Positions 50,326 to 53,745 are shown, counted from the stretch's first letter. The stretch: DNA of 64,000 nucleotides from Alphaproteobacteria bacterium (GCA_017465405.1 JAFTWG010000013.1:7739-71738), one strand, 5' to 3'. The notes: a model not told the origin generated them from the sequence alone. Made by a program: numbers and translations.

Positions 50326-53300
50326 ATGACAAATAATATAAAAAATGCTGTGAGAATATTGTGCCTTATAATGTGTACAACAATCTCCAATGTGTATGCT
50401 AAAGAAACTAATGCAGAAAATATCTATACTTTTGCTAAAAATAACGATTTAAAAAGTTTGCAAGAGAATAGTAAATATCTTGATATTGAGGATAGTAATG
50501 GTGATACAGCTTATTGTATGGCATTAAGACAAAATGAAAAAGATATTGCAAAAATTTTGGAAAAAGCAGGTGCTAATACAAACCATAAATGTGTTTCTTC
50601 AATACTATCTGCAAATAAAACATTTTTGGGAATGGGTAAAAAAGGTTGGTTAACAACCGGTGCTGTGGTTGTTGCCGGAGGTGTAGCCGCTGCTGCCGGA
50701 GGCGGCGGTGGAGGAGGCGGAAGTGGTTCTTCCGATAATACAAATACTCCGTCTGCACCATCTGTTCCAAACTGTGTAAACGGAAGTCTAGTTAATGATA
50801 AGTGTGTTTGTAATGAAGGTTGGAAAGGTAACACTTGCGAACAAATTGTAACTTGTCCTTATAATACAATATCTTGTTCTAACGGCTATAAAGAAACAGG
50901 AAATACATGTAAATCAGGTTCAAAAATATATGTTGAATGTAAAGTAAATACTTGTACTGGATATGAATATACAACATGTCCAATAGGTTATGCTCAAAGT
51001 GATATATGTCAATCAGGAGAGATTGCTAAAATAAAGTGTGATAATTGTGACACGGGTTACGAAAAAGATATAAATGGTAATTGTGTGTTAATTAAAGAAG
51101 ATATTGTTGGTTCATCAACAACATTAGATAATGGTGGAATAATAAATAATAATGAAATTAAGATTGTAAATGATAAGTATGCAGATATCTATGGTCTTAA
51201 GGGGGATCATTTTGCAGTAAATGCTTATACCTATATCAGTGAAAGTCTTAGACCAGGAATGATTAATAGTGCAGATGCATTAATTGATATTGAAAATACG
51301 AATGATGGTAATGTATATGGTGTATATGGAAATCTATCAGCTGAAAATGCTTCTTCATCATCTTGGGGAATAGCAAAAGGAATTATTAATATCCACAATA
51401 TTGGGAATGGAGATATATATGGTTTATATGCAAAAGAAAATGATGCTTGTAATGCTTGCCATAGTACCCCAAATAAGGAATATACTGAAGGAATAATAAA
51501 TATAAATAATGTTGGTAATGGTAATATTTATGGTATTACTGGTAAGTATTCAACTTATAACGCTTATGCATCTAATAGAGAAACAGGACTTCTAATCGCA
51601 GATGCAAGAGCTAGTGTTATAATCAACAATATAGGAAATGGTAATGTTTATGGAATAATGGGGATAGGTGCTAACTCACATGTCTATAATATATATGGAG
51701 ATAGTACAGAACCTCGTTATGAAAAAAAGGCAAAAGGAATTGTTTATATAAAAAATGAGGGTGATGGTAATGTTTATGGATTATATGCACAAGACGGAGA
51801 AGTAAGTAATGGTCATTTAAATAGATATGGTAGCGGAGAGGCTCGTGTAGATATTATCAATGCTAGAGGTAATAGTTTTGGCATTTATGGTGCTAAAGCA
51901 TATAATTATACTAATATTACAAATAAGGATTATGAAGCAACCTATTATGGATATACTACAATTGCAAATTTAGGCGCAGGATATGCCGTTGGTATGTATG
52001 GAGTATCTGAAGCATATAATAGAGGAGATGTTATTGTACATAATTTAGGAAGTGGAACTGCTGTAGGAATTTATGTAAATGGAGGAACAGCAGGGAACTC
52101 AGGGAGTATTACAATTACAAGAGCTAGCTATAAAGATAAAAAAGCAACAGATACGACGGCAGATGATAAAATTTATACCGCTACAACAAGTAAAGGAGGA
52201 ACTGCTGTAGGGATTTATGGTACTAGTGGTGCAAAAATTACAAATAGTGGCACAATTACCATTGATGGTGCTGAAAATGCTTATGGTATTTATGCAGAAT
52301 CAGGTGCTACAATTACCAATAGTGGTAAAATATTTATTGAAAATACAAATACATCATATGGTATTTATGCTGAAGAGGATTCTACAGTTACAAACACTGG
52401 AGAGATTAGTATTGATGGTAATAAAAATCATGCAAATGCCATAAAATTAAATGGTGCTAAATTATTTCAAAATGGTATAATGACTGCTCAATCACTTAAT
52501 TTAAGTGCATTAGGTGGTGAAGTTGTTGCAACATCTACATCTTCTTTTGTGGCAAAAGATGATATATCAGGCAATTTGTCAATTAGTAACAATGTTGTTA
52601 GAAATGGTTTTGATACAACATATACTATCAAGGATATGATTAATGCTGCAGATACCAGTAATTTAAATCTTGTTTCAAAATCTGCAATGTTTGATGCTGA
52701 TTTGAAAAATGGTAAAGATGCGGTTATGACAATGAAGTCATTTAATGATGTATTGGAAAACAAATCATTAGCAAACTTTTTACAGAAAAACTATGCTTTG
52801 CAAAATAACGAAGGTTTGTTCGGTAGTATAAAATCTGCAGAAAGCATAAAATCATTGAACAACTTTGCCGATGAAATGTTTGGTAAAGATATGTTCTCTC
52901 GCTTTGCTTTTGAAGATTTAATGATTATGCGCGAGTTAAACTTTGATATAAACAACAAACTTTTTAATAACAAAGAAGATTCCTTGTCAATCGGTGGTAA
53001 CAAATCTTCCTTTGCTTTTTCCGGAAACAGTCGTTACTCATTGACCAGTGTCAAAAACGATAAAACTTCAATGGGTATCAGTGTTGCGTTCTCTGATATT
53101 AACAGTGATGATGGAAATGATAACAACCAACGATATGACAGAATGTATAATATCAGTATGCCGGTGGGATACCAAGCAAACGGCCTAAAATTTGTAAGTA
53201 CTCCACGAGTTGGATATTCGTACGGAACATACGACCGTAACGGATTTGATAATCAAACTTATGAAGGTACGGTAGAAAAACAAATGTTCGCATTTATGAA

Positions 53301-53745
53301 CGAGGCTCGTTATCCGATACAAGTTGGAGGTTGGAATATTTCTCCGTCTGCAGAATTAAACTTTATTAATTATCGAATTTCAGGACATGAAAAGGATAAG
53401 GAATATAGCCTTAAAATTAAATCACAAAATAACTATTCAGTTGAAGCAGGTGTAGGTTTATACGCAAGTAAAGAAACTAATTTTTCAAAAGATAGTTCAT
53501 TAAGATTTAATGGCGGTGTTGCACTTTATCACGAATTTGCAGACCCGTATAAAATGAAATTGGGTATGAGCGGTATGGCAGGAACATTTACCTTAAGAGA
53601 TGAAGACCGTTCTGATAACAGAGCAGTTGTACAATCTGAAATAGAGTTTAAGCACAAAAACTTCTCTATTGTAGGTAATGTAGCATCATACATAGACCGC
53701 AAATATGAAACAAACGCAACATTAGATTTCAATTTTGAATTTTAG
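50326..53745 (+). CDS. type Va autotransporter with composite passenger: ankyrin repeat, poly-Gly linker, EGF-like Cys-rich module, NxGNGxVYG repeats
   Basis: Signal peptide MTNNIKNAVRILCLIMCTTISNVYA, with AGGAAGGA RBS. ANK-like segment (DSNGDTAYCMALRQNEKDIAKILEKAGANTNH). Linker G12SGSS. EGF-like CVCNEGWKGNTCE. At least 6 NIGNGNVYG-type repeats. C-terminal beta-barrel ending NFEF. Confidence 0.75.
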   Translation: MTNNIKNAVRILCLIMCTTISNVYAKETNAENIYTFAKNNDLKSLQENSKYLDIEDSNGDTAYCMALRQNEKDIAKILEKAGANTNHKCVSSILSANKTFLGMGKKGWLTTGAVVVAGGVAAAAGGGGGGGGSGSSDNTNTPSAPSVPNCVNGSLVNDKCVCNEGWKGNTCEQIVTCPYNTISCSNGYKETGNTCKSGSKIYVECKVNTCTGYEYTTCPIGYAQSDICQSGEIAKIKCDNCDTGYEKDINGNCVLIKEDIVGSSTTLDNGGIINNNEIKIVNDKYADIYGLKGDHFAVNAYTYISESLRPGMINSADALIDIENTNDGNVYGVYGNLSAENASSSSWGIAKGIINIHNIGNGDIYGLYAKENDACNACHSTPNKEYTEGIININNVGNGNIYGITGKYSTYNAYASNRETGLLIADARASVIINNIGNGNVYGIMGIGANSHVYNIYGDSTEPRYEKKAKGIVYIKNEGDGNVYGLYAQDGEVSNGHLNRYGSGEARVDIINARGNSFGIYGAKAYNYTNITNKDYEATYYGYTTIANLGAGYAVGMYGVSEAYNRGDVIVHNLGSGTAVGIYVNGGTAGNSGSITITRASYKDKKATDTTADDKIYTATTSKGGTAVGIYGTSGAKITNSGTITIDGAENAYGIYAESGATITNSGKIFIENTNTSYGIYAEEDSTVTNTGEISIDGNKNHANAIKLNGAKLFQNGIMTAQSLNLSALGGEVVATSTSSFVAKDDISGNLSISNNVVRNGFDTTYTIKDMINAADTSNLNLVSKSAMFDADLKNGKDAVMTMKSFNDVLENKSLANFLQKNYALQNNEGLFGSIKSAESIKSLNNFADEMFGKDMFSRFAFEDLMIMRELNFDINNKLFNNKEDSLSIGGNKSSFAFSGNSRYSLTSVKNDKTSMGISVAFSDINSDDGNDNNQRYDRMYNISMPVGYQANGLKFVSTPRVGYSYGTYDRNGFDNQTYEGTVEKQMFAFMNEARYPIQVGGWNISPSAELNFINYRISGHEKDKEYSLKIKSQNNYSVEAGVGLYASKETNFSKDSSLRFNGGVALYHEFADPYKMKLGMSGMAGTFTLRDEDRSDNRAVVQSEIEFKHKNFSIVGNVASYIDRKYETNATLDFNFEF

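Follow-up and report, generated by a model that had tools for sequence, protein, structure and literature searches.

Type Va autotransporters of known structure, including EstA (3kvn), EspP (2qom/3slj), NalP (1uyn), AIDA-I (4mee), Hbp (3aeh), BrkA (3qq2) and AaaA (9oqa), end in a 12-stranded beta-barrel that is preceded by a pore helix, and combine an N-terminal signal peptide with a beta-helical passenger and an aromatic residue at the C-terminus. The passengers described so far contain few cysteines, typically one closely spaced pair (PMC9769942). One such protein is Fap2 of the gut bacterium Fusobacterium nucleatum (9qe7), in which a long beta-helix rod is followed by a linker and a barrel; the rod is ~50 nm long, and its variable, membrane-distal N-terminal tip binds receptors, among them TIGIT and Gal-GalNAc (PMC12397386). 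In proteins of the Chlamydia Pmp type (Chlam_PMP), the beta-helical passenger has rung motifs that are short and rich in Gly, and a PF03797 barrel comes after it, and the BigA type is represented by Pfam models named after the BigA protein (PF27417, PF25783). Here, we analyzed a 64,000-nucleotide stretch of DNA from an Alphaproteobacteria bacterium (GCA_017465405.1 JAFTWG010000013.1:7739-71738), hereafter the window, focusing on one gene that an earlier note, made from the sequence alone, had described as an autotransporter with ankyrin and epidermal growth factor (EGF)-like modules and an undescribed repeat. The proposed open reading frame (ORF) was confirmed: it is intact at 50326..53745 on the + strand, encodes 1139 aa and ends in a TAG stop. 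We consider it likely that the product is a classical monomeric type Va surface protein of an uncultured gut alphaproteobacterium with a low GC content, in which a beta-helix stalk carries a modular head as the adhesive, ligand-binding end; the protein is probably an adhesin.

The protein shares the general features of the solved type Va systems listed above: a C-terminal 12-stranded barrel with a pore helix before it, an aromatic C-terminus, a signal peptide and a beta-helical passenger. Unlike them, it has a barrel too divergent for PF03797, 18 cysteines in the passenger, an ankyrin cap and an internal hydrophobic segment. It resembles the BigA type in the order BigA_3rd, BigA_beta, barrel that is found in its family, a likeness seen through Pfam models, whereas the head (ankyrin domain, hydrophobic segment and Cys modules) matches no BigA-named Pfam model. 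The literature searched described no autotransporter with ankyrin or EGF-like passenger modules, and contained nothing on PF27417. The combination of domains is unusual among described autotransporters, as the earlier note had it, but it is not unique, because it defines a conserved family of gut Alphaproteobacteria (106 relatives, 110 loci).

The 106 relatives were found in a search of 5.8 billion proteins, and nearly all are unnamed proteins of uncultured Alphaproteobacteria. The same order of parts is kept down to 28% identity: a signal peptide, a small helical domain, the motif FLGMG..GW with a Gly/Ala segment and poly-Gly, then Cys modules and repeats, and finally a C-terminal third that is conserved. 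Column frequencies given below were obtained from 59 sequences, the Pfam survey covered 39 relatives, and the search for loci used a 9-sequence alignment. Structural statements refer to AlphaFold2 (AF2) predictions; the full-length model was built with the family alignment and has a mean predicted local distance difference test (pLDDT) score of 83.

Translocator and junction

The C-terminal part of the gene encodes the following features:

52501..52734, + strand: beta-sandwich junction, BigA_beta-like (residues 726-803; AF2 strands)
52741..52968, + strand: helical junction (residues 806-857) and long pore-spanning helix (residues 860-881), from AF2 and column frequencies
52951-52956, + strand: Asn-Asn dipeptide in the pore helix (residues 876-877), with N876 in 55 of 59 relatives and N, D, E or Q at position 877
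52981..53745, + strand: 12-stranded beta-barrel with a C-terminal Phe, together with the stop codon (residues 886-1139), from AF2, Foldseek and family Pfam matches

The claim that the protein is a type V autotransporter holds, and the type can be given as Va, on the strength of the 12-stranded barrel in the AF2 model, matches of this barrel to known translocators and the detection of PF03797 in relatives. AF2 predicts ~12 strands at 886-1137, with the pore helix 860-881 directly preceding strand 1. A Foldseek comparison to the PDB retrieved EstA (3kvn) with an E-value of 1.6e-8, followed by EspP, AaaA (9oqa), NalP (1uyn), AIDA-I (4mee), Hbp and BrkA with E-values up to 1e-4; the TM-score of the barrel, normalized on the target, reached 0.69. 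The family profile matched AaaA (9oqa) with an E-value of 4.8e-4. PF03797 passes in 14 of the 39 relatives, with the best E-value of 2.7e-24, but gives no match to this protein even at E<=1. Therefore, the canonical beta-barrel of the earlier note is recovered from predicted structure and from relatives, and is not evident in this sequence alone.

The pore helix contains an invariant residue, E863, and three near-invariant ones, F860, N876 and F880. Upstream of the helical junction, PF25783 (BigA_beta) passes in 10 of the 39 relatives, where it aligns to the region of residues 726-803, and has no match to this protein.

Stalk and repeat

Between the head and the junction lies a region of repeats, which we divided into two parts:

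51154..52041, + strand: distal stalk (residues 277-572), with long rungs of 34-42 aa, from AF2 and the motif table
52042..52485, + strand: membrane-proximal stalk (residues 573-720), with mostly 25-aa rungs; the best conserved region of the passenger

The distal rungs follow the pattern I-x-I-x-N-x-G-x-G-x-V-Y-G-hydrophobic-Y, and the proximal ones the pattern G-T-A-x-G-I-Y-x...N-S-G-x-I-x-I. The repeat is real and far above chance: the core [YVFA]G[ILVM][YMT][GAV] occurs in 11 copies in residues 265-725, compared to 0.14 expected (20,000 shuffles, maximum 3), and the strict form GxGxxYG[ILVM][YMT] in 4 copies, compared to 0.003 expected in shuffles. However, the count and spacing given earlier (at least 6 copies, roughly every 35-40 aa) need revision. 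We found 12 motif-bearing rungs in residues 289-682, including one degenerate copy; the first eight lie 34-42 aa apart, and toward the end of the series an interval of 25 aa predominates.

A structure prediction of this region, which the earlier note had proposed as a check (beta-solenoid or other), yielded a beta-solenoid in two AF2 models. The solenoid covers residues 277-720, with three strands per rung and pLDDT mostly >90 in both models, such that one copy of the repeat corresponds to one rung, built from a first strand (G-x-I-x-I-x-N), a tight turn (x-G-x-G-x), a second strand (V-Y-G-hydrophobic-Y) and a variable loop or third strand. The stalk is accordingly predicted to be a three-stranded beta-solenoid of ~13 rungs. 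Tandem Repeats Finder (TRF) detected no DNA-level tandem repeat in the solenoid, and a recent expansion of repeats at the DNA level was rejected on this ground; the copies of the rung are thus old and diverged.

The next question is whether the repeat belongs to a known family. Pertactin, PATR, Chlam_PMP and AIDA have no Pfam match in this protein (E<=1) or in the 39 relatives (E<=1e-3), and a search of the protein against NCBIfam returned nothing; the reservation attached to the original claim, that the repeat might map to a known beta-helix family such as the pertactin-like one, therefore did not materialize. A profile of the solenoid compared to the PDB matched a single sequence, that of Fap2 (9qe7), with an E-value of 1.4e-5 and over several stretches, the best of them residues 2899-3118. 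The two proteins share the rung pattern N-[ST]-G-x-I ... I-G-I-Y-A. In addition, the precomputed annotation places PF27417 (BigA_3rd) on most relatives and on the closest of them (P0001), which is 95% identical to this protein overall and 97-100% identical in the region in question. PF27417 is a recent Pfam family, and its position here was deduced from the order of matches in relatives: in proteins with other mapped domains, BigA_3rd lies after the EGF matches and before BigA_beta and the barrel. Judged by this order, it probably covers the 25-aa membrane-proximal rungs, ~residues 573-720. Hence, the repeat was rightly called undescribed as far as Pertactin, PATR, Chlam_PMP, AIDA and NCBIfam are concerned, but its proximal rungs probably fall in BigA_3rd and its profile weakly matches Fap2. 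We conclude that the repeat is neither pertactin-like nor previously characterized, yet it does not define a fold class of its own, being the signature of the rungs in a rare beta-helix lineage that is probably related to BigA and Fap2.

When 1.84 billion representative proteins were scanned exhaustively with HMMER, the solenoid matched 276 of them at E<=1e-3, of which 91 also passed E<=1e-30; the distant matches are unnamed or generically named proteins from metagenome-assembled genomes (MAGs) of Alphaproteobacteria, and no named repeat family was among them. Several relatives are giant proteins (P0114, 5209 aa; P0115, 3644 aa; P0116; P0117), in which the entire solenoid unit is present in as many as nine tandem copies. 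The NCBI name of one giant relative is "DUF2807 domain-containing protein", and that of another relative is "S-layer family protein".

Modules of the head

The region upstream of the stalk consists of the following parts:

50326..50400, + strand: Sec-type signal peptide (residues 1-25), with predicted cleavage after VYA, by inspection
50404..50610, + strand: mini ankyrin domain (residues 27-95), from the family profile compared to the PDB and AF2 helices
50620..50697, + strand: hydrophobic Gly/Ala segment TFLGMGKKGWLTTGAVVVAGGVAAAA (residues 99-124), from hydropathy and column frequencies
50698..50733, + strand: Gly/Ser tether GGGGGGGGSGSS (residues 125-136), read in the sequence
50773..50838, + strand: EGF-like 4-Cys module CVNGSLVNDKCVCNEGWKGNTC (residues 150-171), from sub-threshold Pfam matches, signature patterns and AF2
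50854..51084, + strand: two 4-Cys modules of ~29 aa (residues 177-205 and 210-238) and a 2-Cys hairpin (residues 241-253), from Cys spacing and regular-expression counts

The N-terminus, MTNNIKNAVRILCLIMCTTISNVYA with KE after the predicted cleavage site, has a positively charged n-region, a hydrophobic core and small residues at positions -3/-1. This n/h/c layout, visible by inspection and the same in all full-length relatives, bears out the signal peptide of the earlier note. A lipoprotein signal was considered and rejected, because there is no lipobox and the cysteines of the signal peptide are not conserved.

The mature protein begins with the ankyrin-like part. According to the alignment and AF2, it comprises a pair of helices forming an N-cap, one canonical ankyrin repeat and one extra helix; the canonical repeat reads G59-x-T-A-L-C64-x-A ... 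L78-x-x-x-G82-A83-N in the alignment and G59-x-T-A-Y-C64 ... G82-A-N in this protein, and the predicted helices span residues 30-38, 42-47, 62-68, 72-80 and 88-93, with pLDDT ~90. The N-terminal family profile matched 317 ankyrin chains in the PDB over profile positions ~35-89, with the best E-value of 3.6e-30; designed ankyrin repeat proteins (DARPins) of three and four repeats matched at ~1e-15. The same profile gave 7 matches in the 5.8-billion-protein database, a search that was dominated by Gly/Ala low-complexity words, and those from outside the family were Pfam-annotated ankyrin proteins. Thus, the ankyrin claim is upheld by the helical segment and the family profile, but not by this sequence alone: Pfam Ank_2 scores 14.8 bits here, under the cut-off of 27.3, and a single-sequence phmmer search of the PDB gave only weak matches to designed ankyrins or chance matches. 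The N-terminal module is ankyrin-like at the level of the sequence profile. It shares with ankyrin repeat proteins, including the exported bacterial proteins Bd3460 (5cea) and AnkB (9iq8), the helix pairs and the pattern G-x-T-A-L-x-x-A ... L-x-x-x-G-A-N; unlike them, it has about one full repeat and a cap in residues 30-93 in place of the usual stack of at least three repeats, and is fused to an autotransporter. A further difference is that the histidine of the TPLH motif is replaced by Cys64, which is invariant in all relatives, as is Cys89, located 25 residues further on. The invariance of the two residues suggests that they may form a disulfide brace, and that the domain is extracytoplasmic. 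The part of the gene that encodes the ankyrin domain has the lowest GC content in the gene (0.27 versus 0.33).

The hydrophobic segment that follows was found in all 57 full-length relatives (57/57), with a mean Kyte-Doolittle hydropathy of 1.1-2.1 over 19 residues. W or Y108 is present in 54, G112 in 58 and A121 in 53 of the 59 aligned sequences, and residues A113-G117-A121-G125 form a small-xxx-small face. AF2 confidence is low over residues 95-146. The tether next to it is encoded by mixed GGA, GGC and GGT codons and is not a homopolymer. Both the hydrophobic and the poly-Gly linker of the earlier note are present, but the latter contains 8 consecutive glycines (11 within residues 117-136), not 12. 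We regard the internal glycine-zipper hydrophobic segment as the oddest conserved feature of the family. If it were a genuine stop-transfer helix downstream of a cleaved signal peptide, the segment would be incompatible with an outer-membrane barrel; most likely it crosses via Sec and has its function at a later stage. It may serve for self-association, membrane insertion, re-anchoring, or packing onto the stalk. A model for insertion or oligomerization in a membrane is provided by the autotransporter toxin VacA, in which this is a property of the N-terminal GxxxG-rich region. A model for packing may be provided by Fap2, where the N-terminus fills a hydrophobic groove of its own helix (PMC12397386).

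The Cys-rich block (residues 150-253) contains 14 Cys in 104 aa, not the ~24 in 110 aa originally claimed; the whole protein has 20, 18 of them outside the signal peptide. Plural EGF-like modules had been proposed, of which the first Cys module remains. This unit (residues 150-171) contains CVCNEGWKGNTC, and CVCNEGWKGNTCE lies in the block at residues 160-172. Its spacing, C-x9-C-x-C-x8-C, is that of an EGF domain reduced to its C-terminal two-thirds, with four cysteines where the full EGF domain has six. Two EGF signatures, which we take to be the PROSITE patterns C-x-C-x5-G-x2-C and C-x-C-x2-[GP]-[FYW]-x4,8-C, both match at residues 160-171; when the Cys-rich block was shuffled 50000 times, both patterns were matched in only 13 cases. 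The Pfam models stay under their cut-offs on this protein (EGF_Teneurin, E-value 7e-4, 20.0 bits versus 24.3; EGF_DL_JAG, 11.8 bits versus 27), whereas a relative (P0010) passes them, with 53.8 bits for EGF_DL_JAG, 44.9 for EGF_Teneurin and 30.1 for EGF_2. The earlier reservation that the ankyrin or EGF assignments might fail profile searches thus proved justified for this sequence alone, while the family profiles and the relatives pass.

The other 10 cysteines belong to the two 4-Cys modules, C-x6-7-C-x9-10-C-x9-C with conserved GY and C-x-SG, and to the hairpin. Pfam does not recognize the 29-aa module, nor does it do so in relatives that contain the module many times over. In the AF2 model, residues 150-255 form small hairpin modules: the EGF-like one is a beta-hairpin with pLDDT 85-90, and the remainder is of moderate confidence, with pLDDT 55-87. 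All 14 cysteines of the head thus sit in modules with even numbers of Cys, which, together with the invariance of C64 and C89, argues for an extracytoplasmic head. Across the family, the number of cysteines per protein ranges from 5 to 71.

Distribution and comparison of strains

We identified 110 loci in species-representative genomes, nearly all of them in MAGs of gut or rumen Alphaproteobacteria, the hosts being human, ruminants, mouse and rabbit; a single MAG often has several paralogs. Three loci (L007, L049 and L051) are in bins labelled Eubacteriales, Selenomonadaceae or Lachnospiraceae; as the family encodes outer-membrane autotransporters and is not found elsewhere than in Alphaproteobacteria, this is most likely binning contamination.

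Comparison to close relatives reveals a mosaic structure. The syntenic locus of P0001 (L001, GCA_054284945.1) is ~99% identical to the window in the upstream intergenic DNA and ~97% identical in residues 81-1139, but only ~60% identical at the nucleotide level in the part that encodes the signal peptide and the ankyrin domain (window 50326-50560), which looks like a swapped cassette. In the comparison to P0002, a 62%-identical relative, the pattern is different: residues 1-135 are 96% and residues 721-1139 ~97% identical, whereas identity falls to 30-45% in residues 136-720, and P0002 lacks the Cys block, carrying no Cys modules at all. These alignments point to recombination that exchanges the head and the stalk as cassettes between strains, the N-terminal module and the junction with the barrel remaining fixed. 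Such mosaicism is expected of an exposed, diversifying surface antigen, and is a usual mark of variation by recombination in proteins of this kind.

In the L001 ortholog, the signal peptide is divergent and its codon 11 is an in-frame TAG (~5795-5830; MITFLRYNIA*VLFLCILLGLNASDANA), so that the gene caller starts inside the ankyrin domain. The stop codon could mark a pseudogene or an on/off variant, or result from an error in the assembly.

Locus and flanking signals

The gene is flanked by the following candidate signals:

50163..50298, + strand: structured 5' leader, the intergenic region between the NagZ-like gene and the autotransporter gene, from a terminator scan and RNA folding
50163-50187, + strand: leader hairpin 1, perfect, 11 bp (terminator scan)
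50205-50231, + strand: leader hairpin 2, perfect, 10 bp (terminator scan)
50279-50298, + strand: terminator-like hairpin with a T-run, directly 5' of the ribosome-binding site (RBS) (terminator scan)
50308..50315, + strand: Shine-Dalgarno-like AGGAAGGA, ~10 nt 5' of the ATG at 50326 (read in the sequence)
53760..53789, no strand assigned: bidirectional intrinsic terminator with a 13-bp stem and T-runs flanking it on both strands, common to the convergent downstream gene

An alternative TTG start at 50302, which would give a longer ORF, is unlikely, as it sits in the T-tail of the 5' hairpin and lacks an RBS. The RNA fold of the leader has a z-score of -6.7, none of the 200 shuffles being equally stable, and the leader is ~99% identical in the related strain (L001). 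An Rfam search of it gave nothing credible, and no further copies of the first hairpin were found within the window. A promoter-like site at 50186-50214 is located upstream of the terminator-like hairpin; consequently, attenuation of the autotransporter gene in the leader is possible. The terminator directly after the stop makes the gene look monocistronic.

The neighboring genes have housekeeping functions: a SPOR-domain gene, an M50 peptidase and a glycoside hydrolase family 3 (GH3) NagZ-like gene upstream, and a MobA-like nucleoside triphosphate (NTP)-transferase and GyrA downstream. The GC content is low throughout both the window (~35%) and the autotransporter gene (33%). No paralogs of the autotransporter were detected within the window by blastp, and a tblastn search of plasmids gave no match to it.

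A second autotransporter is encoded at 38025-42083 (+), with 1352 aa, Chlam_PMP repeats at 126.9 bits and PF03797 at 88.9 bits, and these Pfam matches show that this alphaproteobacterium also carries a surface protein of the Chlamydia Pmp type. A relation between the two autotransporters was examined and rejected (hhalign probability 0.9%, blastp E-value 5.8). A stretch of low GC content (26-31%) at ~18000-26000 contains a large GT2/RgpF-type glycosyltransferase gene (18116-20566, - strand); it is probably a surface-polysaccharide locus and possibly horizontally acquired. At 2438-6421 (-), a 1327-aa protein has sub-threshold to borderline matches of the coiled-coil type (Apolipoprotein, DUF948, ATG17-like), from which a large helical-repeat protein may be predicted.

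Discussion

The reading that we favor is that of a classical type Va surface protein. Following Sec export, the barrel would be inserted by the beta-barrel assembly machinery (BAM), and the passenger would be threaded out C-terminus first and fold into the stalk, which would project the head ~6 nm or more from the cell surface. The head, placed distal to the membrane, consists of the Cys modules (one EGF-like, two novel 4-Cys and one hairpin), the poly-Gly tether, the glycine-zipper-like segment and the minimal ankyrin cap. Like the tip of the Fap2 rod, it would be the adhesive end at which ligands are bound, and its target could be host mucus or cells, or other microbes.

Several observations weigh against this reading. 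The sequence of the protein itself is under the Pfam thresholds for PF03797, Ank and EGF, and the assignments come from family profiles and predicted structure. In the Foldseek comparison to the PDB, the passenger model has no significant neighbor (best E-value 0.02, TM <=0.26); the weak ones are all right-handed parallel beta-helices, including Ag43 and Fap2, none of them significant, and any analogy of the modeled stalk with Fap2 or Ag43 therefore holds at the level of fold class only. Fap2 is ~3 times longer (~50 nm) and superposes poorly (E-value 0.1, TM 0.16), and the available part of its description notes no ankyrin domain, Cys modules or Gly/Ala hydrophobic helix, its N-terminus being a proline-rich strand (PMC12397386). 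As the passengers described so far have few cysteines (PMC9769942), disulfide-rich modules and a folded ankyrin domain may be difficult to export in this way. Furthermore, a simple adhesin model leaves the conserved, near-transmembrane hydrophobic segment inside the passenger unexplained. The domain architecture, the family, its distribution and its mosaicism were obtained by computation, whereas display on the surface, adhesion, the ligand (including any binding to host or matrix), the disulfides and the role of the hydrophobic helix are inferences.

The hydrophobic segment is the starting point of other explanations. By analogy with toxins, it could insert or oligomerize in the membrane of a host or a competitor, with the stalk and the Cys modules serving for delivery and the ankyrin cap placed at or across the membrane. 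Its occurrence and hydropathy throughout the full-length relatives, its conserved W/Y108, G112 and A121 with the small-xxx-small face, its retention where head modules are swapped or deleted (P0002), and the flexible poly-Gly hinge directly after it would all fit such a role; we nevertheless think it very unlikely, given that none of the Pfam glycine-zipper families matches, the segment is not modeled with confidence by AF2, it comes after a folded domain of ~70 aa and not, as its counterpart in VacA, at the N-terminus of the mature protein, and the protein has no toxin-like domain and shows no sign of release of the passenger. Alternatively, the segment and the ankyrin domain might anchor the N-terminus of the passenger, either at the inner membrane, transiently while export proceeds, or permanently in the outer membrane, which would make the ankyrin domain periplasmic or membrane-proximal instead of the distal tip; lipoprotein autotransporters such as NalP use a lipid anchor in a comparable role. 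The near-transmembrane hydropathy with lysines on the N-terminal flank in this protein, the match to signal-peptide ankyrin proteins that act in the periplasm (Bd3460, 5cea; AnkB, 9iq8), and a poly-Gly and Cys-module region long and flexible enough to fold back are compatible with this tether. We give it little credence, however, as the flanking lysines are not conserved in the family and the segment is rich in Ala and Gly, with a positive free energy of insertion on the Hessa scale (+1 to +5 kcal/mol, a crude sum).

An intrabarrel autocleavage of the SPATE (serine protease autotransporters of Enterobacteriaceae) and EspP type at Asn876-Asn877, freeing the stalk and the head into the gut lumen, is suggested by the conservation of the dipeptide (N876 in 55 of 59 relatives, N/D/E/Q at 877) and by the presence of pre-cleavage EspP structures among the best barrel matches. 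It seems unlikely to us, because the dipeptide lies only ~9 residues before the first strand, there is no SPATE protease domain, and Asn in the pore helix is also conserved in many autotransporters that are not cleaved. As for the origin of the ankyrin and EGF-like modules, the EGF models that match relatives represent animal families (Teneurin, Delta/Jagged), and the low GC content of the ankyrin-coding part could point to recent horizontal transfer from a eukaryotic host. Such a transfer is highly improbable: the modules, a 4-Cys remnant of EGF and ~1.5 ankyrin repeats, are both minimal and divergent, and a deep family of bacterial proteins conserves them to as low as 28% identity; the best ankyrin matches are consensus-designed or generic, with no specific eukaryotic protein standing out; and GC content is low throughout the gene and the window. 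A more far-reaching idea, which we rate as doubtful, is that the conserved N-terminal cassette (disulfide-braced mini-ankyrin, glycine-zipper helix and poly-Gly hinge) is a new kind of type V head, in which the helix, by insertion or oligomerization in a target membrane or its own, positions the ankyrin domain, and that the type Va route exports arrays of knotted, disulfide-rich EGF-type modules, with up to 71 Cys per protein among the relatives. If true, this natural export of Cys-rich modules would contradict the working rule of nearly Cys-free type Va passengers.

The favored reading of a plain adhesin, if true, would be useful but not surprising. The analysis shows that a widespread family of "hypothetical proteins" can be recognized as autotransporters only by profile or structure methods, and the family offers test cases of how the type Va route copes with folded or disulfide-rich passenger modules, and of the purpose of a conserved membrane-like helix within a passenger. 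The Alphaproteobacteria of the gut and rumen are uncultured and almost unstudied; this family, often with multiple paralogs, probably ranks among the principal structures exposed on their surface, and may provide a handle on their attachment in the gut.

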